Below, piece by piece: positions 2,271-47,863 of a stretch of 64,000 bases of DNA; positions within the stretch are counted from its first letter, which is position 1; every line of letters begins with the position of its first letter. The position numbers were made by a program, and so were the translations under genes. The DNA lies in NCBI GenBank assembly GCA_052035405.1, contig JBPOHQ010000007.1:12292-76291 (forward strand), read 5' to 3'. Origin of the DNA: Candidatus Nomurabacteria bacterium. GTDB taxonomy: Bacteria > Patescibacteriota > Minisyncoccia > Phycocordibacterales > UBA9973. Below the pieces are notes generated by a model. That model did not search any database. It saw only the letters and a program-made list of their open reading frames with translations, and was not told where the DNA came from.

Positions 2271-5200
2271 ATGAAATCACATTTCGTCTCGGGATATATA
2301 TTAAAAAAGTTTCTCTCAGTTTTTCTTATAGTTTCCTTCTTTATGGCGCCACTAGCGCCTATTTTTGCGCAAGAGGCAACCTTGGATAATTCTGCACCTG
2401 TTAGTACAGAGTCATCATCTCCAGTGGTACTAGATATCCTTCCAAGTGTAGATACTTTGACTGTTACATCAAATGAAACAACGATAGATGCATCGCCACA
2501 GATTGATACCACACCTGTAGATACGCCTACGGATGTAATAACTGACCCAAAAGACGAAAAACCTATTGAAGAAGTACCTGTAGATGAAGTTCCAGTTGAA
2601 GAAGAACCTGAGATGATGATGTCGATGATGGGTGGCACTGGAGGATTCCTTGGAGATACTCGTGATTTACCCAATATCGGATTTCCATCAGTAGATAAAG
2701 CTTCTGGTGGATTGTCATATAGCTATCCTTTAACATTGCCTCCTGGAAGAAATGGACTAGACCCAAAGCTTGCTCTTGAATACTCTAGTCAAGAAAATGA
2801 CCAAGGTAATTTGTTTGGTTATGGTTGGAATATCAATATCCCATATATAAAAAGAATCAATAAAACAGGTATAGAAAAGCTATATACTGACAATTACTTC
2901 TACTCCTCACTCTCTGGTGAACTTGTGTTAGTCTCTGGTACTACCTATGCACCAAAAGTAGAAGACGGAAGATTTTTAACTTATACATTTGATGGTACAT
3001 ATTGGACAGTAAAGTCAAAGGATGGATCGGTATATAAGTTTGGATACAATGCTGGTGCAAGACAAAATAATTCCGGAGACACAAAGACTTTTAAATGGAT
3101 GTTAGAGGAAGAGCGCGATACGAATAATAACTATATTAAGTATGAATACTATAAAAATGGAGGCCAAATATATCCTGATACCATAAGCTACACAGGCAAT
3201 GCATCGACCGACGGTATTTTTACTGTTGTGTTCTCTAGAGCTAGTAGAAACGATGCTGTAACTCAAGATTTTGGAGTTTTTGATGTAACGACAAGCTATA
3301 GAATCAGTGAAATACAGGCAAATATTAACGGCACCTGGGCTAGAAAATATACTCTAGGATATTCAAATGGTGACAATAGCCAGAGATCGTTGTTAACTAA
3401 CATTACTGAAGCAGGACAAGATGAAAGTTCAAATACCACCACCCTTTCACCAGTAGAATTTACCTATCAAGTTGCTACAACATCGAGTGCTGACTTCGTT
3501 ACAGATTCAGCTTGGTCCACAGCTGCTTCATCGACAATAAATACAAACCCATCTTATGGAACAATTGTTGCTGATTTAAACGATGATGGTTTGCCTGATG
3601 TTATGGAATCTTGGAGAGGGGCCAATGATGTATGGTATAAAGGAACATATTTAAATGATGGTGATGGTACTTGGACCCAGGATACAAACCTAACTCCACC
3701 AATTGAATTTGCTGGTAACAGTCCATTGAATGAGTTTGGAATTAGATCAGTTGATTTAAATGCAGATGGTTTGACTGACCTTGTACAAAGTTACAGTAAT
3801 GGTCCAGGTCAAAGCAACACAATACAAAGAGTATATATTAATACTGGAACTTCCTGGTCTCTTGATACGAGTTGGCAGCCATCTTGTTTTTTTCTTGGTT
3901 GGCCGCAAGGGGATAGTGGTTGTAGGTTAATAGATATAAACGGAGATGATTTACCAGATTTCGTCAATGCTGTTGGTGATAACAATGGTAATTCACCAAT
4001 CACAACCTCAGTTTATTTAAACACTGGTAGTGGTTGGAGTAGTAGTTCTGGTTGGAGTATTCCAGTTGATTTGCGTTTCGGTGTAATGCTTGTTGATTAC
4101 AATGGAGACGGGTTGGTTGATATTTTGAAAGGATACAAAAATCCAGACGCTAATCCAGCTATTTATATACAAGAGGCGTATAAAAATAATGGGGATAAAA
4201 CTTGGTCTTCTGACAGTGCGTATACACCACCTGTATACTTTGCAGTTCAAACAAATGGTTCTTCCTTGCCAGTTGGTACAGGAATACAACTAGCCGACAT
4301 TAACGGAGATGGAATGATAGATATTTTACGAGGCAGTGAGACTACTGATGGCGCATATTTAAATAAAGGGAATGGTTGGCACTTAACTACTAACTGGGAT
4401 TTTGGACATGGATCAGTGCCAGTTACTAGTGCTTCGCCTGTTAGGTTTGGAGATTTCGATGGTGATGGAATGATAGACAGATACGAAACAAGTGGTAGTG
4501 GTGGTGCAACAATGCAGAAAAATCAAAATGTTAAAGCTGACTTGATGTCTACAGTTAAGAATCAGTACGGCGGTGTAACAACAGTTACATACAAAGGTTC
4601 ACCTAAATACACTAGTGGCGGTTCAATCTTAAATCCTGATTTACCATTTATATTAATGACGGTATATCAGACTTCTACTGATTCTGGTTTTGGAAATTCA
4701 AATATCGTAAACACATACTCCTATGAAGGGGGTGATTATTATTACAACACCATTACAGACAGAAGGTTCTCTGGGTTTAATAAAATATCGGTAAGTGATG
4801 GTACGACTAAAACCACTACTTTTTATCATCAGGGTAATGCTACAGATTCATCAAACGGAGAATACAGTGACCACTCTTCAAAAATTGGTAAAGTGTACCG
4901 AGTAGAAACAAGTGATACTTCTGGGAATGTATATAAAAAGGTTGTGAACAAATGGGATAAATATAATCAAGGCACAGGCCGAGATTTTGTTAAACCAGTT
5001 CGTTCCACAGTATTAACCTATGACGGTGATAGTGATCACAAAGATATAGCAGAGGAATATACCTATGACAATACTTACGGAAATCTAACAGACAAAATAA
5101 TGTGGGGTGAGGTTACTGGTTCCAATGATGGTTCATTCACCGATACTGGATCTGATAAATACACTGAGAGTATTTCATATACCGCTAATACCACAGACTA

Positions 5201-8200
5201 CATTGTGGGCTTACCATATCAAGATACAGTTGTTGACCAAAGTTCAAATAAAGTTCGCGAGTCAAAGACATACTATGATACTCAATCATTAGGCACAGTC
5301 ACTGATGGGAATATAACAAAAGTAGAAAGATGGAAGACGGGCAGTACCTATGTAAACACTCAAAAGGCATATAACACTACCTACGGCATCCCAACTTCTT
5401 CTACTGACGAACGAGGTAAAACTACCACTTATAGCTATGATTTATACAACCTGTATCCAGCTACAGTCACAAATCCACTGTCTCAGGCAGTAAGTTATAC
5501 TTATGACTACTCACTGGGTAAACCAAAGCAATTCACTGACCAAAACAGCTTTGTATATCAGACTGTTTACGACGGACTAGATAGAGTAAAAGAAGAAAAG
5601 GTTCCAGACTTGTCTTCACCATATTCTCCAATAACTAAAACTGCATATACCTACACCGATACTTCTGGATCTATAGCTGTACAGAAAACAGCATACCTTG
5701 ATGGTTCAAACACAGCTCTTTCATATACATACTTTGATAAACTAAATCGACCAATCCAAACTCGAGTAGAAAATGAGAGTGATTATAACGTTAAAGATTT
5801 CTTGTACAATGCAGCTGGATTACTACAAAAGGAATCCTTACCATATTCTTCTTCAGGTACTGCTATTACCACGGCTAACAGCACTGCATCACTCTATCAT
5901 AATTTCACCTATGATCCATTACAGAGAATTTCTACACAAGTAAACAATGTCGGAACAACTTCATATGCCTATGACGACTGGAAGACATCTATAACTGATC
6001 CAAATACTAAGTTAAAACACTATTACAAAGACGCATACGACAATCTAATTCGTGTTGATGAAACAAATAGTGGAAGTACATATAGTACCTATTATGAATG
6101 GAATGGTAATAAACTATTGACTAAGATTACTGATGCATTAAGCAATATAAGAAGCTTTACTTATAATGGACTTGGTCGCAGACTAACAGCGGAAGACATT
6201 CATGCTTCTGCTGATGGTACCTATGGTACTTGGACATATACTTATGATGATGCTGGTAACCTAACTCAAAGTGTGAACCCGAATAGTCAAACTGTTAACT
6301 ACACTTATAATGATATTAATCAAGTATTAACAGAGAATTATACAGGCGATACCGGAACTGAAATTACATACACATATGGAGGGTGCACCAACGGTACAGG
6401 TAAACTTTGTAGTATAAACATGCTAAATGGTGCAGATACTGATTATACATACAATTCAAACGGTGGTATTGCATCAGAGGTTAAGACAATAAGCAGCACA
6501 GGATATACCACTTCATACACCTATGATAGACAAAGTAACATTCTAGAAATTACCAATCCAGACAGCTCTAAGGTTAAATACAATTTCAATACCGCTGGAA
6601 CGATGGAAACTATCCAAAGAAAAGAGAGCGGTGATGCCAGTTATACCAATGTGATTACTGACATGGACTATGGCCCACACGGAAAGAATACTTACAGAGA
6701 ATTTCTAAATGGCATAAATACAACCAATACCTTTGATGCCACCAAGTTATACAGACTAACTAGAATAAATACAATAAACCCAAATGATACTTCCTCTGGT
6801 TCACCGACAACCACCACATTCTACGCTAATTCTTCCGGTGACGGTCATATCGAGGCTTACAATTCAAACTGGGACACTGTGCACGACAATACAGCTGGTT
6901 CTTATATATCTCGTACCGCTACAACGAACGAGGTTCAAGTACGCAGACATTCAGGTAATTATTATATTTTTAGAGAATTCTTACCATTTGATACTTCTTC
7001 TTTGCCAGACAATGCTTCTATTAGTGCTACAGATCTAAGTATATATATTACTGATAAATCTAATGTAGATAACGATGGTGATGACTTTGTTACTGTGGTT
7101 CAAACATCTCAAGCAAGCACTAGTGAATTAGATTACGAAGATTTTGACCAAGCTGGTGCAGTAAATAATCCTACCGAAGGTGTTGCTACTTCCGATAGAA
7201 AAGATATTACTTCTATCAGTAATGGCTGGCTTGCATTCCCATTAAACAGCACAGGAAGGTCTTGGATTTCAACTACTGGTTACACAAAATTAGGTCTTAG
7301 GGAGGGTCATGATGTATTAGACAATACTATAACCAACTTTGACGACGATAATGATGTAAATAGTATCAAGTTTAGATCTGCTAATTATAGCGGTACATCC
7401 TCTGACCCTAAATTAGATGTGACCTATACTATTCCTGTTGCTACCGACTTTCAAGACATTAATTACACTTATGATGCTAACGGAAATATCACCCAAATAG
7501 TTGATAGCTCAGATACTAATGCTTCTAAAACCGTTGTCTACACTTACGATGATTTAAATCGAATGCTAACCGCTACCGCTACAGGCGTGGCGGGTGGTCA
7601 AAGTACTTACACTCATACCTATACATATAACGCAACAGGTAACATAACATCGAGTCCTTTTGGAACTTATGACTATAGCAGTAGTGGTTTTGCAAATCCA
7701 CATGCAGTAACATCAATTGTAAATGCTTTGAATAATAATCCGGTGATTACCTTAACTGGTTCTGACTTGATTTATCTGAATCTGGGCGATTCGTGGACTG
7801 AACCAGGCTACAGTGCCACAGATGCAGAAGACGGTAATTTAACTTCTAGTGTCACTGTGACTGGTTCGGTGGATACAAATACATTAGGAGTCTATAAACT
7901 TATATATAATGTCACAGACTCAAGCGGTCTACCTGCAGCAGGTGTGGCAAGAACTATATCTGTTAGACAGCCTTATAACCCAAAAGTAAAAACATTGGTT
8001 GTGGCTGGTGGTGGTGCAGGAGGAGCTGGAGATGGTTATAGCGGTGGCGGTGGAGGAGGTGCTGGTGGAGTAATTGAAGATAATGCTTTTGGAGTAACAG
8101 CTCAGAATTATAGTATTACTGTTGGTGATGGCGGTAGAGTGACCTATGCAGAGAGTGGAAGTAATTCAGTCTTCTCTACATTAACTGCTGTGGGTGGTGG

Positions 8201-10232
8201 AGTAGGCGCAAGAAGTTTCTTTAATGGTACTAGTGGAGGTTCTGGCGGGGGAGGGTCCGCTACAAACAATGGAGGTACTGGTACATCTGGACAAGGTAAT
8301 AGTGGTGGAAACGGTGCTACTGGAAGTTATAAAGCTGGTGGTGGAGGAGGGGGTGCTACTGCTACCGGATCAAATGCTGGAGCATCCGATAATGGTGCAA
8401 ATGGCGGAGCGGGCATATCTAGCTCAATTACAGGAATATCTACTACTTATGCTGGTGGTGGTGCAGGAGGAGCTAAGAACAGTAACTATAACGGCGGTAC
8501 TGGTGGAACTGGCGGAGGGGGAAATGGTAGCGGAGTAAATGGATGTACCGCCGGAGCAGCAAATAAGGGCGGAGGCGGAGGCGGTGCAAGGGGCGGATCT
8601 GACCCTTGTGATGGGGGTAAGGGTGTAGTAATTATTGCTTACAAATCCGATGGCACTGATGGAGTATCATCTTCATCAACTGGTGGAACCATTACAACAT
8701 CAGGAGGATATCAAATACATCAATTCAATAGCAATGGTACTTTTGGTTCTGTTCTAAGTAATTACAATTCTCCAAGTAATAATAATCCAGTCATTACTTT
8801 GACCGGGCAGAGCGTGCTTAATGTCGCCGTCAACAGTACTTGGACCGAACCAGGCTATAGTGCCAGTGATACAGAAGACGGGAACTTGACTTCAAATGTT
8901 GTGGTGACTGGTTCGGTGGATACAGCAACCCCAGGTGTATACAACCTAGTGTACAGTGTTGTTGATTCAGGCAATGCTTCTGCTATAACAAAAGTTAGAA
9001 CTGTGTTAGTAAGTAATTCAGTTAGCACTACTAATTACTCTTACGATAACAATGGCAATATGCTTACCCAAACCAACGGTCTATCAAATACTTGGAATTA
9101 CAAAAACCAACTTACTCAGGCAGTAAAAGGAGGAGTTACTAGTACATACACCTACGATTACACAGGACAGAGAGTAAAGCTTGGAAATGGTACTACTACT
9201 ACCGTATATCCAAGTATGTATTACAGTACTGATGGAACTACAAAAACAAAGAGTGTTTATATTGGTGGAACACAAGTTGCTACTATAGAAACTGTTGGCT
9301 CTACCACAACTCCATACTATATACACACAGATCACTTAAATTCTATAAATGTAGTATCTGATAACACTGGAGCTAAGGTTGAATTACTAGATTACTATCC
9401 TTATGGAAGCACACGCATATCTTCTGGTTCATACACAAATCAAAAGCAATACATTGGGCAATACTACGATACAAACACCTCGTTAAATTATCTAAATGCA
9501 AGGTATTATCACAATACAAATGGACAATTTATATCTCAAGATCTAATGTTTTGGACATTACCCCAAGAATTACTTTTTGATCCACAACTACAAAATTCTT
9601 ACAGCTATGCAAGTAACAACCCTATAATCAATAGCGACCCGAGTGGACTTATAAGTAAGTCAGACTTTTCTCCGGGCAACATTGCAAATAGGATTAACAA
9701 CATCCTTAACTCTTATTTTGGAAAGAGTCAAAATCAAAATAGTCAAATTGTTAGCCCAATACAGACAAAACAAAATACAAATGTAAGTCAATTAACTGAT
9801 AATAAAATGGGTTCAGTTGATTATGGACAATATAATGTAACATCAACTAATCTACGCAACCGCCTGGATAAATTTGCCAATGATACCAATCAGAATATAA
9901 TTGTAACTTCAGGAGATCGCTCTTCTGAAAGAAACAAATTAGTTGGTGGCGCAAATGCAAGTAGGCACTTGAATGGTGACGCTGCAGATATTAAGGTGAA
10001 TGGTGTTCAAAATGAACAATTGTCATATATGGCAAATGCATCTGGATTATTTAATACAACTATTTATTATCCTGTAGTAGATTTACCGAAAGCACTTGCT
10101 CCTCACGTTCATGTCGACTTAAACCCCGCAAACAATAACATTTTAAGGATATATGTTCCTTATATGAAAGGTGATTCTATCGTGAATGATTATAAGCCCC
10201 TAATTAACCCCTTAATAAGGGGTAAGCAATAA
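2271..10232 (+). CDS. Sec-secreted giant polymorphic toxin (WapA-like / fused TcB-TcC-like architecture): signal peptide, acidic S/T/P-rich linker, SpvB-like domain, FG-GAP/VCBS beta-propeller repeats, RHS/YD-repeat shell, Ig-like and Gly-rich insertions, RHS core with DPxGL, C-terminal peptidase-M15 (MepK/YcbK-like) toxin domain
   Basis: 2653-aa ORF. N-terminal MKSHF...FAQE signal. SpvB-like LPNIGFPSVDKASGGLSYSYPLTLPPGRNGLDP. Repeated DxNxDGxxD motifs (DLNDDGLPDV, VDLNADGLTDL, IDINGDDLPDF, VDYNGDGLVDI, ADINGDGMIDI, GDFDGDGMIDR). More than 15 YD repeats (YTYDxxGNL...). RHS core YYIHTDHLNS...DYYPYG...ARYYHNTNGQFISQD...DPSGL. Confidence 0.9.
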   Translation: MKSHFVSGYILKKFLSVFLIVSFFMAPLAPIFAQEATLDNSAPVSTESSSPVVLDILPSVDTLTVTSNETTIDASPQIDTTPVDTPTDVITDPKDEKPIEEVPVDEVPVEEEPEMMMSMMGGTGGFLGDTRDLPNIGFPSVDKASGGLSYSYPLTLPPGRNGLDPKLALEYSSQENDQGNLFGYGWNINIPYIKRINKTGIEKLYTDNYFYSSLSGELVLVSGTTYAPKVEDGRFLTYTFDGTYWTVKSKDGSVYKFGYNAGARQNNSGDTKTFKWMLEEERDTNNNYIKYEYYKNGGQIYPDTISYTGNASTDGIFTVVFSRASRNDAVTQDFGVFDVTTSYRISEIQANINGTWARKYTLGYSNGDNSQRSLLTNITEAGQDESSNTTTLSPVEFTYQVATTSSADFVTDSAWSTAASSTINTNPSYGTIVADLNDDGLPDVMESWRGANDVWYKGTYLNDGDGTWTQDTNLTPPIEFAGNSPLNEFGIRSVDLNADGLTDLVQSYSNGPGQSNTIQRVYINTGTSWSLDTSWQPSCFFLGWPQGDSGCRLIDINGDDLPDFVNAVGDNNGNSPITTSVYLNTGSGWSSSSGWSIPVDLRFGVMLVDYNGDGLVDILKGYKNPDANPAIYIQEAYKNNGDKTWSSDSAYTPPVYFAVQTNGSSLPVGTGIQLADINGDGMIDILRGSETTDGAYLNKGNGWHLTTNWDFGHGSVPVTSASPVRFGDFDGDGMIDRYETSGSGGATMQKNQNVKADLMSTVKNQYGGVTTVTYKGSPKYTSGGSILNPDLPFILMTVYQTSTDSGFGNSNIVNTYSYEGGDYYYNTITDRRFSGFNKISVSDGTTKTTTFYHQGNATDSSNGEYSDHSSKIGKVYRVETSDTSGNVYKKVVNKWDKYNQGTGRDFVKPVRSTVLTYDGDSDHKDIAEEYTYDNTYGNLTDKIMWGEVTGSNDGSFTDTGSDKYTESISYTANTTDYIVGLPYQDTVVDQSSNKVRESKTYYDTQSLGTVTDGNITKVERWKTGSTYVNTQKAYNTTYGIPTSSTDERGKTTTYSYDLYNLYPATVTNPLSQAVSYTYDYSLGKPKQFTDQNSFVYQTVYDGLDRVKEEKVPDLSSPYSPITKTAYTYTDTSGSIAVQKTAYLDGSNTALSYTYFDKLNRPIQTRVENESDYNVKDFLYNAAGLLQKESLPYSSSGTAITTANSTASLYHNFTYDPLQRISTQVNNVGTTSYAYDDWKTSITDPNTKLKHYYKDAYDNLIRVDETNSGSTYSTYYEWNGNKLLTKITDALSNIRSFTYNGLGRRLTAEDIHASADGTYGTWTYTYDDAGNLTQSVNPNSQTVNYTYNDINQVLTENYTGDTGTEITYTYGGCTNGTGKLCSINMLNGADTDYTYNSNGGIASEVKTISSTGYTTSYTYDRQSNILEITNPDSSKVKYNFNTAGTMETIQRKESGDASYTNVITDMDYGPHGKNTYREFLNGINTTNTFDATKLYRLTRINTINPNDTSSGSPTTTTFYANSSGDGHIEAYNSNWDTVHDNTAGSYISRTATTNEVQVRRHSGNYYIFREFLPFDTSSLPDNASISATDLSIYITDKSNVDNDGDDFVTVVQTSQASTSELDYEDFDQAGAVNNPTEGVATSDRKDITSISNGWLAFPLNSTGRSWISTTGYTKLGLREGHDVLDNTITNFDDDNDVNSIKFRSANYSGTSSDPKLDVTYTIPVATDFQDINYTYDANGNITQIVDSSDTNASKTVVYTYDDLNRMLTATATGVAGGQSTYTHTYTYNATGNITSSPFGTYDYSSSGFANPHAVTSIVNALNNNPVITLTGSDLIYLNLGDSWTEPGYSATDAEDGNLTSSVTVTGSVDTNTLGVYKLIYNVTDSSGLPAAGVARTISVRQPYNPKVKTLVVAGGGAGGAGDGYSGGGGGGAGGVIEDNAFGVTAQNYSITVGDGGRVTYAESGSNSVFSTLTAVGGGVGARSFFNGTSGGSGGGGSATNNGGTGTSGQGNSGGNGATGSYKAGGGGGGATATGSNAGASDNGANGGAGISSSITGISTTYAGGGAGGAKNSNYNGGTGGTGGGGNGSGVNGCTAGAANKGGGGGGARGGSDPCDGGKGVVIIAYKSDGTDGVSSSSTGGTITTSGGYQIHQFNSNGTFGSVLSNYNSPSNNNPVITLTGQSVLNVAVNSTWTEPGYSASDTEDGNLTSNVVVTGSVDTATPGVYNLVYSVVDSGNASAITKVRTVLVSNSVSTTNYSYDNNGNMLTQTNGLSNTWNYKNQLTQAVKGGVTSTYTYDYTGQRVKLGNGTTTTVYPSMYYSTDGTTKTKSVYIGGTQVATIETVGSTTTPYYIHTDHLNSINVVSDNTGAKVELLDYYPYGSTRISSGSYTNQKQYIGQYYDTNTSLNYLNARYYHNTNGQFISQDLMFWTLPQELLFDPQLQNSYSYASNNPIINSDPSGLISKSDFSPGNIANRINNILNSYFGKSQNQNSQIVSPIQTKQNTNVSQLTDNKMGSVDYGQYNVTSTNLRNRLDKFANDTNQNIIVTSGDRSSERNKLVGGANASRHLNGDAADIKVNGVQNEQLSYMANASGLFNTTIYYPVVDLPKALAPHVHVDLNPANNNILRIYVPYMKGDSIVNDYKPLINPLIRGKQ
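2650..3130 (+). other. SpvB/TcB N-terminal-like domain of the RHS protein
   Basis: Motifs SYSYPLTLPPGRNGLDPKLALEYSS...GYGWNINIPYI. Confidence 0.6.
3540..4500 (+). other. FG-GAP/VCBS-type beta-propeller repeat region (six or more DxNxDGxxD blades)
   Basis: Calcium-binding-like loops recur every ~50-60 aa. Confidence 0.6.
5040..6560 (+). other. RHS/YD-repeat shell, main block (further YD repeats at 7450-7640 and 9030-9200)
   Basis: YxYDxxGNL/TxxxD repeats throughout. Confidence 0.8.
7731..7970 (+). other. Ig-like (DUF5011/HYR-like) domain, copy 1
   Basis: NNNPVITLTGSDLIYLNLGDSWTEPGYSATDAEDGNLTSSVTVTGSVDT...; paralogous to 8779-9012. Confidence 0.5.
7995..8650 (+). other. Gly-rich low-complexity insertion (GGxGG/GGGGGG blocks, ~215 aa) inside the RHS protein
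   Basis: Runs of GGT/GGA/GGC codons; ends ...CDGGKGVVIIAYKSDG. Confidence 0.7.
8779..9012 (+). other. Ig-like (DUF5011/HYR-like) domain, copy 2
   Basis: NNNPVITLTGQSVLNVAVNSTWTEPGYSASDTEDGNLTSNVVVTGSVDT...; about 70 % nt identity to copy 1 by eye. Confidence 0.5.
9030..9650 (+). other. RHS repeat-associated core domain ending in the DPxGL aspartyl-autoprotease motif (DPSGL at 9636-9650)
   Basis: YYIHTDHLNS, DYYPYG, LNARYYHNTNGQFISQD, DPSGL. Confidence 0.8.
9651..10229 (+). other. C-terminal toxin domain: peptidase M15A / DUF882 (MepK/YcbK-like murein peptidase) fold
   Basis: TSGDRSSERNKLVGGANASRHLNGDAADI (9909-9992) matches the SGYRSxxxNxxVGGAxxSxHxxGxAxDI signature; HVHVD (10104-10118) supplies the HxH zinc ligands. 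Confidence 0.7.
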
Positions 10233-10233
10233 T

Positions 10234-10830
10234 ATGAAAACCAAACACATAATAATTGTAATTTTATTCGTGATTATAACTTCATACTTATTACTTAATA
10301 ATAAATTTGGAAAAGTTGCGAATAGCTGGAAATTTCAAAAGGTTATTGGGCAAACAATATTCTTTTCGAATAATCAACAATTTAATATTAACTTGTATGA
10401 CCTAAAATACGTCGGGCAACTATCTTCAGGCAAAGATAATCCGTTTTTTATAGTTTCAGGTAGAACTTGTCATAATTGTGACGAGAATCTAGCTATATAT
10501 ATATATTCTCCTAAAATAGGACTTATTAAAGAAAATAACGAACCTATAAGGTATTCATACCCAGGGAAAGAATATGATTACTCAAACAATAAACTTATTT
10601 TCGAATCCAGAATGTTCTATGGCCAGTGCTTAGATAAAAACAGTAGTTCAATTATTTGGTTTCAAAAGGAACTTGGCTCAAATGAAGTTTACAAAGAAAG
10701 TGCATTTGCTTTAGAGGTTATAGGAGAAAATATAAAAGAATCAATCAAAAAAGATACTGATTTGAGTATAGAACAAATCATAAAAAATTGTAACGAATTA
10801 CCAGGTGTTGACGTTACTACTCAACCTTAA
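10234..10830 (+). CDS. Candidate cognate immunity protein (N-terminal membrane anchor, extracytoplasmic Cys-containing domain)
   Basis: Starts 2 nt after the RHS stop codon; MKTKHIIIVILFVIITSYLLL anchor; no recognisable family. Confidence 0.5.
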   Translation: MKTKHIIIVILFVIITSYLLLNNKFGKVANSWKFQKVIGQTIFFSNNQQFNINLYDLKYVGQLSSGKDNPFFIVSGRTCHNCDENLAIYIYSPKIGLIKENNEPIRYSYPGKEYDYSNNKLIFESRMFYGQCLDKNSSSIIWFQKELGSNEVYKESAFALEVIGENIKESIKKDTDLSIEQIIKNCNELPGVDVTTQP

Positions 10831-11120: not shown

Positions 11121-11651
11121 ATGAACTACATCTATCATTGGGTTCCAAAAGATATGCAAGGAGATGTGCTTTTCCCTTTGAATGCACTTAAAAAGACGCA
11201 TCCTGATTTGTATAAGAAACAAGCAAGTAAATATGTCGGACGAGAACAAATAATGCAATACAGGCTTCCTGTGTTGAATTGTTTATGGAACGACGTATTG
11301 CATTTTTCTCCTGTTCATCCATCAGAAGTGAAACAGGCCTTGATTGAGGCGGGTAGAAAAAAGCCTTTTGATGTTGAATTTTTTGAAATAGATCCACATC
11401 TTTTAAATCCTGAAAACACAATTGTTTATTTATACAAAGACAGCAGTATAATCGATAAGACAGAGGAAAATAATTTTGTAAAGTATAATCCTGAAGATAT
11501 AGCTCAATATTCTGTATTGCCAAAGGAAACTAAGGATTATTATAAAGAAATGCTTTCTCAAGGTAAAAACCCTCTATTATTTCATCGAGTACCACACATC
11601 CTTTTCAAGGGTTCACTTAATACGTTAAAAATTAAAAGAATGAAATTCTAA
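11121..11651 (+). CDS. Hypothetical cytoplasmic protein
   Basis: 176-aa ORF, no family recognised. Confidence 0.45.
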   Translation: MNYIYHWVPKDMQGDVLFPLNALKKTHPDLYKKQASKYVGREQIMQYRLPVLNCLWNDVLHFSPVHPSEVKQALIEAGRKKPFDVEFFEIDPHLLNPENTIVYLYKDSSIIDKTEENNFVKYNPEDIAQYSVLPKETKDYYKEMLSQGKNPLLFHRVPHILFKGSLNTLKIKRMKF

Positions 11652-21060: not shown

Positions 21061-22368
21061 TTATTTTAACTCTTTTAAGTGTTCGAGGAGTTTGCTTAGT
21101 TTAACTGTGTTTTGGGACCTATTAGACATATCTCTTACTATGACAGTGTTGTCTATTGCTTCTTTTGCACCAAAGATGAGTGCATAAGGAACTGCTAATT
21201 TTTCAGCTATAGCGAGTTGAGCACCAAGAGAATCTTTTGAGAGGGATTGAGCTATTGGTATGTGTGCTTTACGGAGAATCTCTATCACATTGAGACTTTT
21301 AAGTTTGGCTTCACTTCCTAATTGGATAAAGTATATCTTTGGTTTTTTCATGATTCGTGGAGCAAGTTTTTTGTACCAAGGAGAAGCGACAATACGGTCT
21401 ACGCCGATTGCCATCCCTACTGCTGGAACATCTTTCTTTCCACCGACTTGTTTTGCGAGATAGTCATAGCGTCCACCTCCGGCAATTGATAGAGGTGTAC
21501 CATCTTCACCACCTTTTTCTTCTATAACTTCAAATACTGTACGAGTATAGTAAGCGAGTCCTCGAACGAGATTTTTATTAATATTGTACTGGATACCCAT
21601 TTCTTCTAAGTATTCCAACACCTCCTTAAAGTGTTTCTTGCAAGATGGGCATAGGAAACTAATAGAGTCTGGTGCTCCTTCGTTGATTTCTTTTGTTTTC
21701 TCTTCTTTTGAATCAAGAATTCTAAGAGGATTTGTCTTTAATCTTTCTTTGTCTATCGCGGGGAGGGCAGAGAGATTCTTTTTATAGTAGTTTGTTAGTT
21801 CTTTGAGGTATCCGTTACGGCATTCTTTGTCCCCAATTGAATTTATATCAATAGAAAGATTCTCTGCACCAGCTTCTTCGAGAATACTCATACCTGCCTT
21901 TATTACAAGTGCGTCCATGATACTTTTATCACTACCTAATGCATCTAGGTCAAATTGATAAAATTGTCGGTAACGTCCGCGTTGAGGTTTATCATGTCTA
22001 AAAGATGGGCCGTATTGATAGAACAACACTGGTTGAGGGAGAGATTGCATCCCGTGTTCTATGTATGCACGCATTAAAGATCCAGTGTGTTCAGGTCGGA
22101 GTGCAAGCACATCGCCACCTTTTGTCTTTAGAATATACATTTCTTTATCTACTATATCTGTACCATCTCCTACACCACGAGAAAAAACTTCTTCGTGTTC
22201 CATCATTGGGGTCTCGATAGGTTTAAATCCGTAGTACACAGCGACTTCTTGAGCTTTCTCAAAGAAACCTTGGAAACTGTAGTATTCTTCATTTTTTATA
22301 TCACGCATTCCTTTTGGAGATGCGACTTCTCTCGCTTTATTTTCTTTTTTAGGTGTTGTTTTACTCAT
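21061..22368 (-). CDS. hisS: Histidyl-tRNA synthetase (native copy)
   Basis: Class II motif 2 FRHDKPQRGRYRQFYQ; C-terminal anticodon-binding domain. Confidence 0.9.
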   Translation of the reverse strand: MSKTTPKKENKAREVASPKGMRDIKNEEYYSFQGFFEKAQEVAVYYGFKPIETPMMEHEEVFSRGVGDGTDIVDKEMYILKTKGGDVLALRPEHTGSLMRAYIEHGMQSLPQPVLFYQYGPSFRHDKPQRGRYRQFYQFDLDALGSDKSIMDALVIKAGMSILEEAGAENLSIDINSIGDKECRNGYLKELTNYYKKNLSALPAIDKERLKTNPLRILDSKEEKTKEINEGAPDSISFLCPSCKKHFKEVLEYLEEMGIQYNINKNLVRGLAYYTRTVFEVIEEKGGEDGTPLSIAGGGRYDYLAKQVGGKKDVPAVGMAIGVDRIVASPWYKKLAPRIMKKPKIYFIQLGSEAKLKSLNVIEILRKAHIPIAQSLSKDSLGAQLAIAEKLAVPYALIFGAKEAIDNTVIVRDMSNRSQNTVKLSKLLEHLKELK

Positions 22369-32579: not shown

Positions 32580-34031
32580 ATGTTGAAAAGATATTTTGTA
32601 TTTGTGTTTAGTTTTGCCTCCTTATTATCTTTTAATTTTGTTGGTGCGAGTGTGGTTATAAATGAAGTTCAAATATCTCCGACAGGAGATAGATTTATTG
32701 AACTCTTTAATCAAGACGATACAGAGGTAAATCTAACTGATTGGTATATTCAAAGGAAGACGCAAACAGGCACGAGTTTTAGCTCGCTTGTATCCAGTAC
32801 AAATTTTGAAAACAAAAAAATCAAAGGGCATGAATACTTTTTAATTTCTAGAAGCTTACTCAATAATTCAGATATCGTAGTGAGCACCATGACACTCACT
32901 GATTCCAATGTGATTCAGCTTAAAAATCAAAGCGGTGATATCGTTGACAAGCTCTGTTGGGGAGATGTGACTGATTGTGGAACGGTTGTCGCAAACCCTA
33001 CTGAAGGGAAAAGTGTCGCTCGAGGTACAGGTGGAGTGGTTATAGGAACACCGACACCTAAAGCAGCGAATAGTACTTCAGTCGGTGCTTCGGAACAGCA
33101 ACCAAATGAAGGAGCTCAGACCGATACATCTACTGGAACTACTACATCAGGATCAGGTTCTTCTATAAGTAAAACTGTAGAAGGAAAAATAATTACAAAA
33201 GTTGCAGTTAAAAGTATCGCGTTTGCGGGACTGCAAACGTCATTTCAGGCAAGTACCTTAGGCAAGGATGGATTACCGCTTTTTTATGGTAGATACTACT
33301 GGAATTTTGGTGATGGTACCTCACAAGAGACAAAAGTAAGTGATGGCGGGATGGTATCGCATACGTATTTTTATCCTGGTGAATACACGGTAATTCTAGA
33401 ATATTACATAAATAGTTATGGAGAAATTCCAGATGCAACAGACACAGTAAATCTAAAAGTAACAAGCGTAGAAGTTTTTATTTCAAGTATAGGGGACCAG
33501 AAAGATTTTTATATTGAACTTTCAAACAACACTGGGAACGACATTGATATTTCAAAATGGATCCTCGTCTCGGGAGAAAAAAGATTCTCATTTCCAAAAA
33601 ATACTTATATAGGAGCAAAAAAGAAAACCACATTTTCTCCCGCAGTAACTGGTTTTACTTTCTCTGACAAAAATAATCTAAAGTTAGTAAATCAAGATTG
33701 GAAAACTATTTTTGATTACGGCTCTACTGTGAGACCTATTCAAGTTGTATTACCGATAACTTATTCTTCAAGTAAAAAAGTAGCTCAAAAAGAAAATAGT
33801 TCTTCGTATACAATCACATTAGGAGAAAAAGAAGAAGACATAGAAAAAGATACGTTGTTGAATGCTCTTGTTGCACGTGGTGTTCAAAATAATACACCAA
33901 AGACTGGTACGTACCTGTATATTATTTTCTTTATTATTTTAATTTCTCTTGCGGGTTTTCTGGTATATATTCTTCGTAGAAGAAAATTTGGGACCAAAGA
34001 AGGTGACGACTTTGACATTTTAGATGAATAA
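32580..34031 (+). CDS. Surface protein with two lamin-tail domains (LTD) and a PKD domain, C-terminal transmembrane anchor
   Basis: VVINEVQISPTGDRFIELFN (LTD); YYWNFGDGTSQE...HTYFYPGEYTV (PKD, ~33290-33410); C-terminal LYIIFFIILISLAGFLVYILRRRK. Confidence 0.65.
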   Translation: MLKRYFVFVFSFASLLSFNFVGASVVINEVQISPTGDRFIELFNQDDTEVNLTDWYIQRKTQTGTSFSSLVSSTNFENKKIKGHEYFLISRSLLNNSDIVVSTMTLTDSNVIQLKNQSGDIVDKLCWGDVTDCGTVVANPTEGKSVARGTGGVVIGTPTPKAANSTSVGASEQQPNEGAQTDTSTGTTTSGSGSSISKTVEGKIITKVAVKSIAFAGLQTSFQASTLGKDGLPLFYGRYYWNFGDGTSQETKVSDGGMVSHTYFYPGEYTVILEYYINSYGEIPDATDTVNLKVTSVEVFISSIGDQKDFYIELSNNTGNDIDISKWILVSGEKRFSFPKNTYIGAKKKTTFSPAVTGFTFSDKNNLKLVNQDWKTIFDYGSTVRPIQVVLPITYSSSKKVAQKENSSSYTITLGEKEEDIEKDTLLNALVARGVQNNTPKTGTYLYIIFFIILISLAGFLVYILRRRKFGTKEGDDFDILDE

Positions 34032-34382: not shown

Positions 34383-37300
34383 ATGGTAATAAATAAAAAA
34401 CAAAAAGGAAAAAGTAAATCCGTAAGGGCAATTTTGTTGATTGCTCTTTTCTCCTTTGTGTTTGTTTTAAACTCTATTTTCTATACTTTGTCTTTTGCAG
34501 CAGCAGGGGTTCCTCTTATAATAAATTTTCAAGGAAGACTCTTGAACTCTAGTGGTAACCTTTTGGGTGGAGCGTCCGGTACAAACTACTGTTATAAATT
34601 TTCTATTTACGATGCTGCGTCCGGTGGGTCTAAAATATGGCCAGCGGGTAGTCCTTCGACTATGACAATACTCACTCGTGAAGGAGTGTTCGATGCACCA
34701 GTCGGAGACGTTAGTGCAGGAGGGGATGCACTAACTTTAGCTTTCACTGATGACCAAGCTTTTATGAATGTCGAAGTATCTGCTATTGGAGCTGGAAGCT
34801 GTACTTCAGGAGATGAAAGTTTTGAGACTCTTACTCCACGTCAACAAATTGTTTCTTCTGCTTTTGCTATAAATTCAAAAACTGTTGGGGGATTCACTCC
34901 AGCACAATCTGCAACCGGTAGTCAGATACCAGTTCTCACTTCTGGGTCGCTCGTACTCGGAGATACAAATCCAGGGATTAAAGTTATAGGATCTAATACT
35001 CTCACTTTACAAAGTGGTGTTACTGGAGACATTCAGTTTTATAGTTCATCAAATAAAATTACTTCATCTGGTGATTTAACGATAGCAGGACTTGCAACTA
35101 CTGTCGGACTTACTTCTACTGGTAATGTTTCTATTACTTCTTCCAACACAACTCAAAATACCACATCATCTGCTCTTGCTGTGAACTTAAATTCACTTAC
35201 TTCCGGTACCGGAATATACGCAGCTTCTTCCTCTTTGACTTCCGGTTCACTGATGAATTTATCAATTACAGGTACAGGAGCACAAACAGGACAAAAGGGT
35301 TTAAATATTTCTCTGCAGGGTGCCAATGCTGTAGCAGGTCGAACCACTTATGGAGCGTATATTTCAAATGCTCATACAGGAACTTCGGTAAATATTAGTA
35401 CGTACTCTACGGCTAGTGGTGGTGCATTCAATGTGGGAGGGTATTTTGATTCTGCCGGTTCTGGAGCAACTAATACAGGTATTTATGCTTCAGCTTCAGG
35501 TGGTACAAATAATTACGCAGCTATTTTTGAAAATGGGAACGTGGGTATTGGAACTACTGCACCAACAAAAGCTCTGAGCATAGAAGGTGCGATGAATTTC
35601 TTAACATCCGGTGTTTCTCGTGGAATTGTTGGTCCGCCTACGTGGGACACTTCTTATGTAGCTATTCAAAATGGAACCTTAGCAGAAAGTACCTCTAATA
35701 CGGCTTTAGCTCAAAATGTATCTGGTGATACTATACTAAATGCCGCTACTGGTAGAACGCTTTACTTAAGGATAGGTAATGCTTCTTCTATGACATTGCT
35801 ATCTGGTGGTAATGTTGGTGTAGGGACAACAGCTCCAGATAAAGCTTTAGAAATCAATTCATCCACGGGTGCGAATTTACGTTTGACTTACAATGACTCA
35901 AATGGTTCTGCTACGAACTATGCAGATTTGCAAACTACAAGTGCTGGATATCTCACCGTAATTCCAAGTGGTGGACAGACAGATATAGGCACTAGAGCTG
36001 GAAGTGACGTGACGTACGGAACCTTAAATGTTTTTACCCCAGATGGAGCAACTAGGGGAATAAAGATAACTACAGGTGCAACATCTATTACTCAATCTCC
36101 GTTTAGCATCTATGATTCAGCCGGTTCTCTAAAAGCATCTATTGATACTTCATGGCGATGGAATTCTGTTGCAGGATTCGTTGCTCCAACTTTCTATACA
36201 GATACATGGCAGCCTTATACGGGTTCTGTTGACTTTAATATTAACCCACCTTCCACAAAAAATGTTAATTTAAATGTTGCAGGTGGAGGTCAGGTAGTAG
36301 TAACAGGTGGTATGAAAATTGGAACAACAACAGCTGCCTCTACCATTGTTGCAGCAAACACCACAGGTGGATCAAGTAATCCAGGAATTATTTTTGATAC
36401 AGCAGGGAATTACTGGGCAAACAGTCAACAGATATATTCTTTCCGAGAAAATGGAACAGAATTTTTCTCTATTGATGGTATCGGAAATATAAAAGCTCCA
36501 GCAGGAAATTTTACAACTTCAAGCACTACCCCAGAATCCGGAACCGACTCTTTCATTGGTCATGGTATGCGTCGTGCAAATACTGCTGCTGGATTTAATT
36601 TCGCATGGGGCGAATCAATAGTGTCGACCACTGAGCCAGGAATAGACTTATTCCCGATAGGTAGTAGTCATATAACAAATGGAATTCTTTTTAGATTATC
36701 TAAAGACAGTGCACGCACTGACGTGGCTTTACAAATAAATGGAGATGGAGGCATAGGGGTAAACACTACTCCGACTTCAGATTATTTATTTAATATAAAT
36801 GGTAATACTACAAATGATAACAGTAGAATATTAAATATAACTCAAGCAAACAATTCAGATGAAGACAGTAGTTCTATATATATAACAGCCACCCCAACAT
36901 TAGGATCAATAGCAGCTGAGCGCACTGTGAGAGGATCTTATCTGAGTTTGACTCCAAGCTTAACCATTGCTGGGGGTGGTATTTCTGGTAATGTTTTTGG
37001 TGCAGAAACTGCTATAGATTTATCTTCTGTTACTTTAGGAAATACAACGGGTGGTATAAATTCTGTGAATTATGGTAGCAGTGTGAACATTACAGGTACT
37101 CCAGTACTTAATGACACTCTTGCTGGTGATGACACTTTTCTAAGTGTATACGGTGCCTCTACAAATGTTCAAGTTTCTCCTACGTTAACAAATATTGGAA
37201 ATGCTGAGTTTCTAAGTTATGGAGCTTCTTTTAATAATGCTTCTAGTTCGCTTGGGAATGCAAATTTGTTAAGTCAAGCAACCGGTATTTATGTTTCTTC

Positions 37301-40300
37301 TGCCGGAGCCTTAACAACAACTGGAACGACATCACATTATGGTGCACAAATTACTGCAGGGGGTACTGCAGATACAAATTATGGATTATATGTTAGTAGT
37401 TCTGGAGCCACTACAAATTATGCTGCGATATTTGCATTAGGCAATGTAGGTATAGGTGATGTGGACCCGGCATCACTCTTTACAGTAGGTGCAGGGGATT
37501 TATTCCAAGTAAATAGTAGTGGTGCCATAGCTGCAGCGACAGGAGTTACTTCATCTGGTACCATTACATTCTCTGGACTTGGAGGAGGTGGATCACAGTG
37601 TGTTCTTACAGACAACTCAGGAATACTTTCTGCTGGTAGTTGTGGAGGTGGAGGAGCAACTTTGGACAGTGCTTATACAGCAGGTAATACAATAGGTACA
37701 GACAGTGGTAATAATGTAATTATAAACTTAGCCGAGGTGGCAACTCCGACAGAGTTTGTGATAAATAATCTAGATACAGCTGGAGTCAATGCAGTGCAGA
37801 TAGACAATGGTATAGCTTCAGGAACACTGACAAATGGACTTTTGTTAGAGCAGTCTGGTGCAGGCACTATGACTTCCGCTATTCAGATAACTGAGACAAC
37901 AGGCACTATCACAAATGGTATTTCTGTTACTGGAACTCTTACAAATATTTTAAATACCCCTACTCTTGATATTACAGGAGCAGGAGCGATAACAGGAGTG
38001 ACTGGTATATCAGGAGGTGATGTAGTAATAGATTTTAATGATTTTGTTGTAGACGTAGAAGGTTTTACTGTTATTGCACCAGACGCTACGGGAGATGCAT
38101 TGAGTATTATCTTTGGTGCAGCTACTGATTTGCAAGCAATTGTGATAGATGCTGCAACAAATGCGTCTACTCAGACAGAAGGGTTAATACAAATAACTTC
38201 AGATACTTCTACTGACACAGCTATTGCTGGAGTAGGACTCACTTTAGTGGCTGTTGATGATGATGCTGCAGATATACTTTATGGTCACCGTACAGATATA
38301 ACAATCCAAGAAGATACTACAGACAAGGATACAGTATATGGAAACTACGTAGGATTTACTCAAAATGATCCAAACTCAACAGGGTATGGATTTGCTGTTA
38401 TAGCAGAAGATGCTGGTACTTCACCTCTTGCTGTAGGTCTGCTTATTCAAAATCTCCAAGCCACTGATATAGACATAACAGATGGTATTTTGATACAAGC
38501 TACTACAAATGATTCTATTTTAGATGCTATAGATGTATCAGATGCAGAGATCACGAACGCTATAAACATAGGCACGAATTTACTTGTAGCATCTGGAGAC
38601 TCTATCAATGACTTCACTGGCAATGGCTTAGTTGTATCTTCAAATGCTCTTACTGTAGACACCACTCTTGGAGCTGATGGGCTTTCTGCTACGACTTCAT
38701 CTGGTTCAGGACTTGAAACATTGGCGACAGGAGTAGCATTACTCCAAGGTTGTGCACATGATGAAGTTTTGAAATGGAACGAAACTTCAGACGTTTGGGC
38801 TTGTGGGAAAGACAATGATTTAATTACTTTGTCTTGGGCTGAAACAAATTTGACTGCTTCACAAACTGCTCTACAAATGGACAGACCAAACGCTACTAAC
38901 TTAAACACAACTACCTCTGAGGCATACATGCCTTATGCTGGAAGTATCGTTGGTATAGAAGTCGGAGGTAGTGCTGCTCGTACTGCTGGTACTGCTACTT
39001 TTGAAGTATATAAAAATGGTGCTGCTACAGGATTAACTGCTGTTATAAATGGAACAAATACTCAATACGTAAGAACTACTCAAGTTCCAGGGACTGATAC
39101 TTTTGCAGCAGGAGATTATATAGATGTGAGAGAGACTACTACAGGAACCTTTGCTCCTACTACTTCTGAATACGTAGCTACTGTGTGGCTAGAGATAAAC
39201 GAAGGAGCTGACTTAGCAGAGTTATACAATATAGAAGATGTCAGTATTGAGTCAGGTGATGTTGTTGCAATACACCCATTCCTTGAAAATGGCATAATGA
39301 AAAGTAATAAAGCGTATCAGAAAGAAATTTATGGAGTAATTGCAACCAGACCGGGGGTTATTTTAGGTCAAAAAGAAATAGGAGACATAAGCATGTCTCG
39401 TGCGGTTGCTCTAGCTGGACGTGTGCCAGTCAAGGTAACTAATTCAAATGGTGTTATTAAAAAAGGTGATTATCTTACAAGTTCAGACATACCAGGAGTT
39501 GCAATGAAATTGACTAAAAATGGTATGTCTATTGGTATTGCCATGGAAGATTTTTATGGAGATGATGTTGGTAAAATAAATATGTATGTTAAAAATGGAG
39601 TAGTAAATGGTGATACAGAAAGTGTATTAGAAAATTTAGAAGGTTTGTCAGGAATAGAAACAAATAAAATAACCCTAAAGGGGCTGAATAGTATAGAACT
39701 AACATCAGAAAGTATAAGTGCACTTTCTAGTGCGATAGATTCTCTCAAATTTGAGAATTCAAAACAAGCAGATGATGTAATTATGCTTAATAACAAGAAC
39801 GAATCATTTGAAAATAAAATAATAAATATAGAGTCTGCTATGAGTTTAGGCATGTTTGAAAATAAAAATAATCTTAATTTAGAAACGTTAGTGGTGGGAG
39901 GGGAGGTACAGTTTAATGGACTAACATTCTTTAACTCAAGTACGGTGTTTAATCGAAATGTTACATTTGGTAATGTTGTAGAATTTACAACTCCACCACT
40001 TTTCAACAAAGACACAGCCGGTTTTGCGGTAATAAAAGCAGGAAGTAAAAAAGTGGAAGTAGTTTTCGAAAATCCGTATATAGCTCAGCCTGTAGTGAAT
40101 GCGTCTATTTCTTTAGAGGATTCAGTTAATCCCGCTACAGAGACTACCCCAGAAGTAGTGAATACTATGACAGACGAACAAGTTGAAGAATTTTTTAGCC
40201 AAAATATAGAGTACTTGATTACAAATAAAACTGAGAAAGGTTTTGTAATTAGAATAAATAAAGTAATTACAGAAGACGTACTATTCTCATGGTCAGCTTT

Positions 40301-40640
40301 TGCCGTAAAAGATCCAAAGATTTTTGAAAGTGTGTTGCCAGGACTTGTAATCGAGCAAGTTATTGAAGAAAATGAACCTACTCCTTCAAAGGTCATTCCA
40401 ACTCAAAACTCAACACCAGATGAAGCAATAATAGAAGAAACATCAGTATCCGAAGAAACAAATGAGACTATCGGTGCTCCAGAAGTTTTTGATACAGCAG
40501 AAACACCAGAACCTTCAACAGTTACAGATACACAAGAAAATCTAAATGCACAGGTGACAGAAGTTCCTGCAGTGTCTACTTTCAAAGAGACAAGAGCAGT
40601 AGAAATGAGTAATGCACCAGAGACTTTGATTGCGGAGTAG
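34383..40640 (+). CDS. Giant (2085-aa) membrane-anchored tail-fibre-like surface protein with an internal peptidase-S74 intramolecular-chaperone (IMC) domain
   Basis: N-terminal transmembrane helix; recurring [14 protein letters not shown](S/E)I motifs (fibre-type repeats); IMC domain [23 protein letters not shown]...[12 protein letters not shown] at 39201-39600; a further ~340 aa follow. Confidence 0.8.
39201..39600 (+). other. Peptidase S74 / 'chaperone of endosialidase' intramolecular-chaperone domain (internal)
   Basis: DLAELY...GDVVAIH...[13 protein letters not shown]...GRVPVKV pattern. Confidence 0.65.
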
Positions 40641-40682: not shown

Positions 40683-41096
40683 ATGTTAAGAAAAAAATCA
40701 TTTAGAATTCTGTTGTTATTAGTTACTTTAGGAGCGATAGGCCTTGCAGGGTATTTTTATTATGAACTCAATAATCTTAAAAATAATCCTCAATCAATAA
40801 CTAAGAAAGAGGTTTCAGACCTTGTGGATAAAGTTTCTCGATTAGTTTTGTTACCCGAGAAAGAGATACCCACAGTAGCCACTGTGTCAGATTTAGAAAA
40901 ACTCAAAGATCAAAAGTTTTTTGCTAAAGCTCAAAAAGGAGACAAGGTACTCATCTATGCAGAAGCAAAGAAAGCATATTTATATTCTGTAACAAAAGAC
41001 AGAGTTATAGATATTGCACCCCTCAATTTAGGAAACAAAAAAGAATCAAATACAGAAATACAAAATAGTAATGACAGTAGTCTTATTATAGAGTAG
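40683..41096 (+). CDS. Small membrane-anchored protein, paralogue 1
   Basis: N-terminal transmembrane helix; PTVATVSDLEKLKDQKFFAKAQKGDKVLIY closely matches the next ORF. Confidence 0.5.
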   Translation: MLRKKSFRILLLLVTLGAIGLAGYFYYELNNLKNNPQSITKKEVSDLVDKVSRLVLLPEKEIPTVATVSDLEKLKDQKFFAKAQKGDKVLIYAEAKKAYLYSVTKDRVIDIAPLNLGNKKESNTEIQNSNDSSLIIE

Positions 41097-41130
41097 TTTT
41101 ATTTGGTTAATATTCTAGTCTCTTGCTATA

Positions 41131-41547: not shown

Positions 41548-41563
41548 TTTCTAAAATGGTCAG

Positions 41564-42586: not shown

Positions 42587-42647
42587 TTATCCACATTAAA
42601 AATAATGGTGCAGTTAGTTATTTATTGGTATAATCTAATTAATTTTT

Positions 42648-43892: not shown

Positions 43893-43905
43893 ATTTTAAT
43901 CGACT

Positions 43906-44931: not shown

Positions 44932-44942
44932 ACTTTTCTTTA

Positions 44943-45851: not shown

Positions 45852-45857
45852 TTACAT

Positions 45858-47853: not shown

Positions 47854-47863
47854 TTGCATCTAA

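Follow-up and report, generated by a model that had tools for sequence, protein, structure and literature searches.

The 64-kb stretch of contig JBPOHQ010000007.1 considered here (the window, that is, all 64,000 nucleotides analysed) contains on its forward strand a single intact open reading frame (ORF) for a 2653-residue RHS/YD protein that ends in a predicted zinc peptidase domain, followed immediately by a gene for a predicted cognate immunity protein. Coordinates of both genes and of the features within them are collected in Table 1.

Architecture of the RHS protein and its tail

Pfam searches of the 2653-residue protein locate an SpvB domain at residues 144–297 (E = 6.4e-15), four FG-GAP_3 matches (E = 3.2e-12) and seven stretches of RHS_repeat (E = 5.1e-15), together with two Bact_surface_Ig-like domains, a Gly_rich_2 domain and a C-terminal Peptidase_M15_3 domain; orthologues of the protein also match TEN_YD-shell, and the Pfam scan finds no PAAR or VgrG domain in it. 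An SpvB N-terminal domain, an FG-GAP propeller and an RHS shell are thus present in one chain, the arrangement of the TcB-TcC cocoon of Tc toxins, and carriers of this TcB/TcC-like type (TcdB/TcaC) are a recognised class of polymorphic toxin carrier (PMC3482391). The predicted signal peptide or anchor is the sole segment of the protein having a 19-residue Kyte-Doolittle mean above 1.6, ends in ..IFA-QE, and suggests that the protein is exported by the Sec pathway.

The motif NPIINSDPSGL contains the only DPxGL of the protein and matches the PxxxxDPxGL motif that divides conserved core from variable tail in RHS/YD polymorphic toxins. Because it occurs only once, positions 9651–10229 are exactly the 193-residue tail that follows the core. 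An earlier reading made from the DNA alone (the sequence-only reading) had placed the toxin domain at these same positions, and translation of the ORF and the positions of the motifs show both its coordinates and the sequence it quoted to be exact. The tail holds TSGDRSSERNKLVGGANASRHLNGDAADI and the downstream HVHVD. Cleavage of the tail at the RHS end motif is established for RHS/TcC proteins, and by analogy the tail is presumably released autoproteolytically at DPSGL by an RHS aspartyl autoprotease. In the AlphaFold model the linker that begins the tail has predicted local distance difference test (pLDDT) values below 50 at tail residues 1–7 and 24–49, with a helix at residues 8–22.

Table 1. 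Features of the RHS gene and the adjoining gene, in positions of the window (aa, amino acids; TM, transmembrane).
Feature	Positions	Strand	Basis
RHS/YD polymorphic toxin ORF: N-terminal signal-like segment, SpvB, FG-GAP, RHS shell, C-terminal M15A toxin	2271..10232	+	Pfam
Predicted Sec signal peptide or anchor, MKSHFVSGYILKKFLSVFLIVSFFMAPLAPIFAQE	2271..2375	+	hydrophobicity
Insertion of 433 aa within the RHS region, aa 1817-2249, made up of one glycine-rich and two Ig-like surface domains	7719..9017	+	Pfam
RHS core end motif NPIINSDPSGL, presumed autoproteolytic shell/payload boundary	9618..9650	+	
Tail linker (tail aa 1-49), low-complexity, mostly disordered, one helix	9651..9797	+	AlphaFold pLDDT
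Predicted zinc peptidase toxin domain of M15A (LAS) type with a C-terminal beta extension specific to the family, tail aa ~50-193	9798..10229	+	
Arg2550 (tail R90, in SGDR), counterpart of 1LBU R138	9918..9920	+	HMMER alignment; invariant in A1
SRHLNGDAAD (SxHxxGxAxD); His2566 and Asp2573, predicted zinc ligands (1LBU H154, D161)	9960..9989	+	HMMER alignment; invariant in A1
HVHVD; His2612 (~1LBU H195), His2614 as predicted third zinc ligand (~H197), Asp2616 as conserved acid	10104..10118	+	motif and spacing; invariant in A1
Predicted cognate immunity protein, 198 aa: N-terminal membrane anchor and all-beta domain, four conserved Cys	10234..10830	+	

The insertion in the RHS region consists of two Bact_surface_Ig-like domains on either side of the Gly_rich_2 domain. 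It is precisely missing from an orthologue of 87–88% identity in a second assembly (locus L010), the tail of which is the same. A Saccharibacteria orthologue (locus L006) shares the overall design and has a larger related insertion with four Ig-like domains and a glycine-rich domain. A variable surface module of this kind within an RHS shell is unusual.

Peptidase family, fold and predicted active site

The Pfam family PF08291 (Peptidase_M15_3) matches the tail alone with 57.3 bits (E = 1.9e-15; gathering cut-off 23.2) and the whole protein with E = 6.9e-14, and the PHROG endolysin family phrog_894 matches the tail with E = 7.5e-14. A tail-family profile was built from alignment A1, which comprises the tail and its nine closest homologues (10 sequences), and was compared with the sequences of the PDB. 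The single match is 1LBU, the Zn2+ D-Ala-D-Ala carboxypeptidase of Streptomyces albus G, at E = 1.3e-8; the family profile is needed for this value, the tail as a single query reaching 1LBU only marginally (E = 0.13). At the level of sequence the resemblance to M15 is confirmed as being far beyond chance. An AlphaFold2 model of the tail, calculated from the 10-sequence alignment, has a mean pLDDT of 81.7 and values of 88–98 at residues 50–190, and its fold is the Hedgehog/DD-peptidase (LAS) fold. The closest solved structure by both sequence and fold is again 1LBU, and Hedgehog N-domains occupy ranks two to four in the fold searches. On the profile matches and the predicted fold, the C-terminal domain of the RHS protein is a member of MEROPS M15A (PF08291) with the LAS fold. 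The sequence-only reading had expected a peptidase at this position rather than a nuclease or deaminase, with which the PF08291 match and the LAS fold agree.

In 1LBU the zinc ligands are H154, D161 and H197, R138 binds the substrate carboxylate and H195 is the general base, and SxHxxGxAxD is the class motif (PMC13461873). HMMER alignments place R90, H106 and D113 of the tail on R138, H154 and D161 of 1LBU. The distance from His to Asp is 7 residues, and that from Asp to the third ligand is 41 in the tail versus 36 in 1LBU. All six of the residues R2550, H2566, D2573, H2612, H2614 and D2616 are invariant in the 10-sequence alignment, and of the top 53 homologues nearly all retain both motifs (SxHxxGxAxD and HxHxD). 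The His/Asp/His zinc site proposed in the sequence-only reading is accordingly intact as far as motifs and conservation are concerned. Because the catalytic residues are invariant in A1 and hardly any of the top 53 homologues lacks the motifs, the domain is very probably an active zinc peptidase, the geometry of its site being one that we infer. The HxH of the tail resembles that of 1LBU and differs from the (W/F)xH of characterised M15A endolysins, so that the predicted chemistry leans towards that of a carboxypeptidase.

The downstream gene and the distribution of the pair

The stop codon of the toxin gene (10230–10232) is separated by a single base from the ATG of the downstream ORF, as expected of the cognate downstream gene of an RHS/YD polymorphic toxin, and the synteny of the two genes is conserved. 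Sixteen metagenome loci were retrieved by the toxin profile alone and then scanned with a hidden Markov model (HMM) of the immunity family. The immunity gene lies immediately downstream on the same strand in 14 of these 16 loci and in all four genome loci. Homologues stand directly behind toxin homologues at L001 (56% identity) and L002 (36%, E = 1e-45), and likewise at L005, L006, L008, L009, L010 and L016. The metagenome loci L030 and L032 may use a different immunity protein; the toxin of L030 (P0009-type) has an insertion of ~25 residues ahead of the HxH motif.

No Pfam, NCBIfam or PHROG model matches the family of the 10234–10830 product, its homologues are annotated as hypothetical in every source, and the protein has no structural relative that is clear. 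In its predicted structure (mean pLDDT 86) a TM helix at residues 2–24 precedes an all-beta domain. Four Cys and a CDEN motif are invariant in alignment A3 of the downstream genes from seven loci. All 21 distinct N-termini of the family are hydrophobic and ~10 of them have a lipobox Cys. The lipobox Cys is found in loci of Bacteroidota type (DUF6443 or a diderm context) and the plain anchor in those resembling the candidate phyla radiation. Such N-termini indicate a protector situated outside the cytoplasm, where a toxin directed at peptidoglycan would need to be neutralised. The 10234–10830 product is predicted from these features to be the cognate immunity protein, and the conserved, membrane-anchored extracytoplasmic partner that the sequence-only reading saw in this ORF is borne out by the synteny and the hydrophobic N-termini.

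In Microbulbifer variabilis a distant homologue of the immunity protein (L011:6001-6540, 32% identity) has no toxin nearby and is probably an orphan immunity gene. Orphan copies without a toxin are typical of immunity genes. Just downstream of the immunity gene in the window is a 176-residue ORF (11121–11651) with no Pfam match, which is also found in the second assembly of the same organism (L013:8090-8620).

A word-indexed search with the tail returned nine close homologues, the best of them being 79% identical and from Candidatus Nomurabacteria. An exhaustive HMM search with the tail profile covered 1.84 billion representatives, clustered at 50% identity. At E<1e-3 it gives 7727 matches, which represent the general M15_3 family, and at E<1e-30 it gives 28 cluster representatives. 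About 40 clusters span the domain in full, with its C-terminal beta extension. In these the domain is always C-terminal, in proteins of up to 1882 residues, the long ones being DUF6443+RHS proteins, and many homologues have the same end motif, NNPxxxxDPxG, ~100 residues upstream of the core of the peptidase. The species-representative genomes with the domain are metagenome-assembled genomes (MAGs), one from Saccharibacteria, one from Nomurabacteria and two from Bacteroidota. The carriers are unrelated scaffolds, namely SpvB/FG-GAP RHS proteins in Saccharibacteria and Nomurabacteria (the window, L006 and L010) and DUF6443 RHS proteins in Bacteroidota. The tail also occurs as an orphan fragment, alone at L001 and, at L002 on a diderm contig, as part of a cassette array that follows a full-length RHS gene. 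Different carriers and orphan cassettes are what is seen with the mobile modules of RHS/YD polymorphic toxins, and by sequence comparison the tail is a modular payload of such a toxin. A search of the window finds no further copy of the toxin, the immunity gene or the RHS end.

Two of the loci have other features. The orphan toxin-immunity cassette at L001:4634-6518, on a Nomurabacteria contig, adjoins weak matches to Terminase_6C and a transposase-HTH, which hint at a mobile or prophage-like neighbourhood. At L014 (1-1188 and 1433-2389) an RHS end, YSYARNNPVNMKDPSGN, is followed by a different LAS tail (VanY/Peptidase_M15_4) and then by a 181-residue TM protein, an orphan copy of the 10234–10830 immunity family and a YD-shell fragment. 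The VanY/M15_4 tail suggests that RHS payloads in such arrays come from no fewer than two LAS subfamilies. The small contig of L014 is labelled Candidatus Pacearchaeota, and this archaeal label may be a binning error.

Interpretation, related systems and genomic setting

In our judgement the locus probably encodes a Sec-exported, TcB/TcC-like RHS polymorphic toxin whose payload cuts peptidoglycan peptides outside the cytoplasm, with a protector encoded downstream. This interpretation draws on the domain identity, the fold, the conserved catalytic residues, the modularity on unrelated RHS scaffolds and the toxin-immunity synteny described above. The RHS protein would be exported by Sec with its tail enclosed in the RHS shell. 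The payload, made up of a flexible linker of ~50 residues and an M15A zinc peptidase of ~140 residues, would be freed at DPSGL by the RHS aspartyl autoprotease and would reach the wall compartment of a neighbouring cell. There the Zn-dependent M15A domain may hydrolyse a peptide bond in the stem peptides or cross-links of peptidoglycan, and its toxicity would follow from the removal of transpeptidation donors or the severing of cross-links, either of which would weaken the wall. The producer would be shielded by the translationally coupled 10234–10830 product, which, being membrane-anchored and outward-facing, would bind the toxin outside the cytoplasm.

Several points weigh against this interpretation. 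The equivalence of tail H152 and H154 to H195 and H197 of 1LBU is one that we infer from motif and spacing, the scissile bond is not deducible from sequence, and activity and toxicity are predictions for every member of the tail subfamily. Loci L030 and L032, which have the most divergent toxin matches, are without an immunity homologue. The organism has no recognisable translocation machine for delivery of the toxin, and its placement as one of the candidate phyla radiation type is drawn only from relatives of its HisRS at ~40% identity and from the RHS orthologues.

The sequence-only reading had named the payload a MepK/YcbK-type M15 peptidase, which would make it an L,D-endopeptidase cutting the 3-3 cross-links between two meso-diaminopimelate residues (mDAP-mDAP). 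The two families are of the same clan and have the SxHxxGxAxD and HxH motifs in common, and weak matches to both MepK models are indeed obtained: DUF882 (PF05951) scores 22.2 bits on the tail and 17.6 bits on the whole protein, and the NCBIfam MepK equivalog NF053624 scores 22.7 bits (E = 7.3e-5). However, both scores are below the curated cut-offs (27 and 185, respectively), and membership of the tail in MepK/DUF882 is rejected on this basis, whereas the score of PF08291/M15A is far higher at 57 bits. The solved structure nearest to the tail by sequence and by fold is the DD-carboxypeptidase 1LBU, and the tail has SGDR where the MepK signature quoted in the earlier reading has SGYR. The assignment to M15 zinc peptidases therefore stands and that to MepK/YcbK does not, and 3-3 cross-link cleavage of the MepK kind is a quite unlikely function for the payload.

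Alternatively, the domain could serve an episymbiotic or predatory way of life and not competition between bacteria: displayed on the surface of a candidate phyla radiation cell, it would be a lysin for opening the wall of the host bacterium for attachment or feeding, the downstream protein guarding only the wall of the producer. Such a role would suit the origin of the closest relatives in Saccharibacteria and Nomurabacteria MAGs, the Ig-like and FG-GAP surface modules of the protein, the occurrence at L014, in a comparable small-genome array, of another RHS payload of LAS type (VanY/M15_4) and the toxin-immunity cassette held in common with Bacteroidota. Nevertheless, the same pair is carried by ordinary Bacteroidota RHS proteins and in orphan cassettes typical of polymorphic toxin loci, the orphan immunity gene of Microbulbifer fits a competitive arms race, and the organism is not known to be associated with a host; we regard this role as unlikely. 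Action in the cytoplasm on a soluble substrate such as D-Ala-D-Ala, which would starve wall synthesis in the manner of VanX, is very improbable, given that the immunity homologues all begin with a signal, an anchor or a lipoprotein sequence and would be in the wrong compartment, and that exported enzymes and endolysins are the nearest relatives. The ranks of Hedgehog N-domains in the fold searches could be taken to indicate a catalytically dead binding module of Hedgehog-N type, or a decayed pseudo-toxin. However, conservation across ~50 divergent homologues extends to the Arg, the His/Asp/His, the HxH base and the Asp that follows it, and the ORF is intact and conserved at 87–88% in the second assembly, so that loss of activity is barely credible.

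The preferred interpretation, a polymorphic toxin with an extracytoplasmic peptidase payload, could be extended to a broader one in which bacteria of the candidate phyla radiation (Saccharibacteria, Nomurabacteria and relatives) have Sec-exported, TcB/TcC-like RHS cocoons with LAS peptidoglycan peptidases (M15A here, VanY/M15_4 at L014) as contact weapons against host walls, cassettes are exchanged with Bacteroidota, and the unannotated all-beta, four-Cys family represents a novel class of inhibitors that act on LAS zinc peptidases outside the cytoplasm. This extension is speculative and has, in our view, a small chance of being correct; wall-breaching episymbiont weaponry and a new class of LAS-peptidase inhibitor may exist, and the evidence gives no support for them.

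Among known enzymes, 1LBU is the type enzyme of M15A/PF08291, and the tail is 21% identical to it. It is secreted as a free enzyme and has a peptidoglycan-binding-like domain at its N-terminus, whereas the tail is borne by an RHS protein with an immunity gene alongside and carries an N-terminal helix and a C-terminal beta extension of its own, the substrate of the tail being a predicted one. The single-domain PF08291 endolysins LysPM1, the phage ST79 endolysin and Spp64 are Zn-dependent lytic peptidoglycan peptidases (PMC13461873). These act from within at lysis, with (W/F)xH and with neither an immunity partner nor an RHS carrier, and the catalytic residues of the tail (Arg, His/Asp/His and HxH) are closer to those of 1LBU than to theirs. 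E. coli MepK (YcbK; DUF882/PF05951), a periplasmic peptidoglycan peptidase of L,D-endopeptidase type, shares the clan and the core motifs; it is a stand-alone housekeeping enzyme, whereas the tail is a toxin module that scores below the MepK family cut-offs.

Among known toxins, RHS-borne Tox-LD-peptidase toxins were catalogued in 2012 (Zhang et al., PMC3482391). These and the Tlde1/Tae5 effectors of type VI secretion systems (T6SS) resemble the present system in having payloads directed at peptidoglycan peptides and linked periplasmic immunity. However, they are thiol enzymes of YkuD fold that travel by T6SS, the type II secretion system or TcdB/TcaC-type carriers, whereas the tail is a predicted LAS zinc enzyme, and the immunity families are unrelated. 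Sec-exported RHS toxins of WapA type occur in monoderms (B. subtilis, S. suis), and for some of their tails toxicity is confined to the periplasm (PMC12704120). Together with the RHS-borne L,D-peptidase toxins and the L,D-carboxypeptidase effectors of T6SS they are precedents for the proposed mechanism, and the lytic PF08291 endolysins illustrate an activity of which the fold is capable. A signal peptide, an RHS shell, a variable C-terminal toxin, a downstream immunity gene and orphan copies are common to both systems; WapA differs in that its N-terminal domains are LysM or wall-binding ones and its partners SecF-like/SrtB, where the present protein has SpvB and FG-GAP and no such partner genes were seen. 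M15-like domains are also listed in T6SS effectors, namely WHIX class II and Neisseria VgrG-linked LysM-M15 (PMC12135965; PMC10210955). Those are bioinformatic annotations on WHIX or VgrG carriers of T6SS-bearing Proteobacteria, in contrast to a protein without PAAR or VgrG. The sequence-only reading had called a wall-hydrolysing RHS payload uncommon, which is fair; it is not unprecedented, given the L,D-peptidase toxins catalogued in 2012 and the M15-like T6SS effectors.

The literature searched, which did not extend to subscription journals and is weak evidence in this respect, yielded no paper on an RHS tail of the M15 family, on its immunity family or on such systems in Patescibacteria, and none linking Patescibacteria RHS proteins to wall hydrolases; the name Peptidase_M15_3 appears there almost solely in endolysin papers. 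The system would add an LAS/M15A zinc peptidase to the RHS payloads, for which the catalogues searched have nucleases, deaminases and the thiol L,D-peptidase. Peptidoglycan-targeting payloads on polymorphic toxins are already known, and the system extends the known family of exchangeable bacterial toxins in a genuine but rather ordinary way. If the 10234–10830 family is a true proteinaceous inhibitor of M15 peptidases, it would be of interest for research on endolysins and wall hydrolases. The pair is common to lineages of the candidate phyla radiation and Bacteroidota and could shed light on the means by which ultra-small bacteria fight their neighbours or exploit them; a wall target requires no cytoplasmic import, which suits organisms without injection machines.

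The window is ordinary chromosome of 30–41% GC. Its recognisable genes include those for DnaE, GAPDH, a split transketolase, Fmt, Def, Pth, signal peptidase I, HisRS, MscL, MsrA, glycosyltransferases and an LdcA-type L,D-carboxypeptidase. Among the scanned window ORFs of >=100 residues there are no components of T6SS or of the type VII secretion system and no PAAR or VgrG, so that neither the PAAR/VgrG-interacting domain nor the neighbours of a T6SS-delivered Rhs effector are found there; no TcA-like translocator is recognisable next to the RHS gene. The closest named relatives of the window HisRS, at ~40% identity, are from Candidatus Pacebacteria and ADurb.Bin400, which together with the RHS orthologues points to an organism of Patescibacteria type (candidate phyla radiation). 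The LdcA-type murein tetrapeptide L,D-carboxypeptidase (Peptidase_S66 and S66C; 48894–49838, reverse strand) suggests that peptidoglycan peptides are recycled or trimmed, and hence that the organism has a wall of its own in need of protection from the toxin.

Two genes of the window are HisRS-like. That at 21061–22368 on the reverse strand has an anticodon-binding domain, and that at 54947–56239 on the forward strand matches only tRNA-synt_His, its named homologues carrying the annotation of an ATP phosphoribosyltransferase regulatory subunit (HisZ-like). A 2085-residue ORF at 34383–40640, 24 kb from the RHS gene, has no Pfam match, nor do the eight ORFs that follow it (137–414 residues; 40683–48715), and together these form a large block. 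Just ahead of it, a 483-residue ORF (32580–34031) has two Lamin-tail domains and PKD domains and is a probable surface protein.

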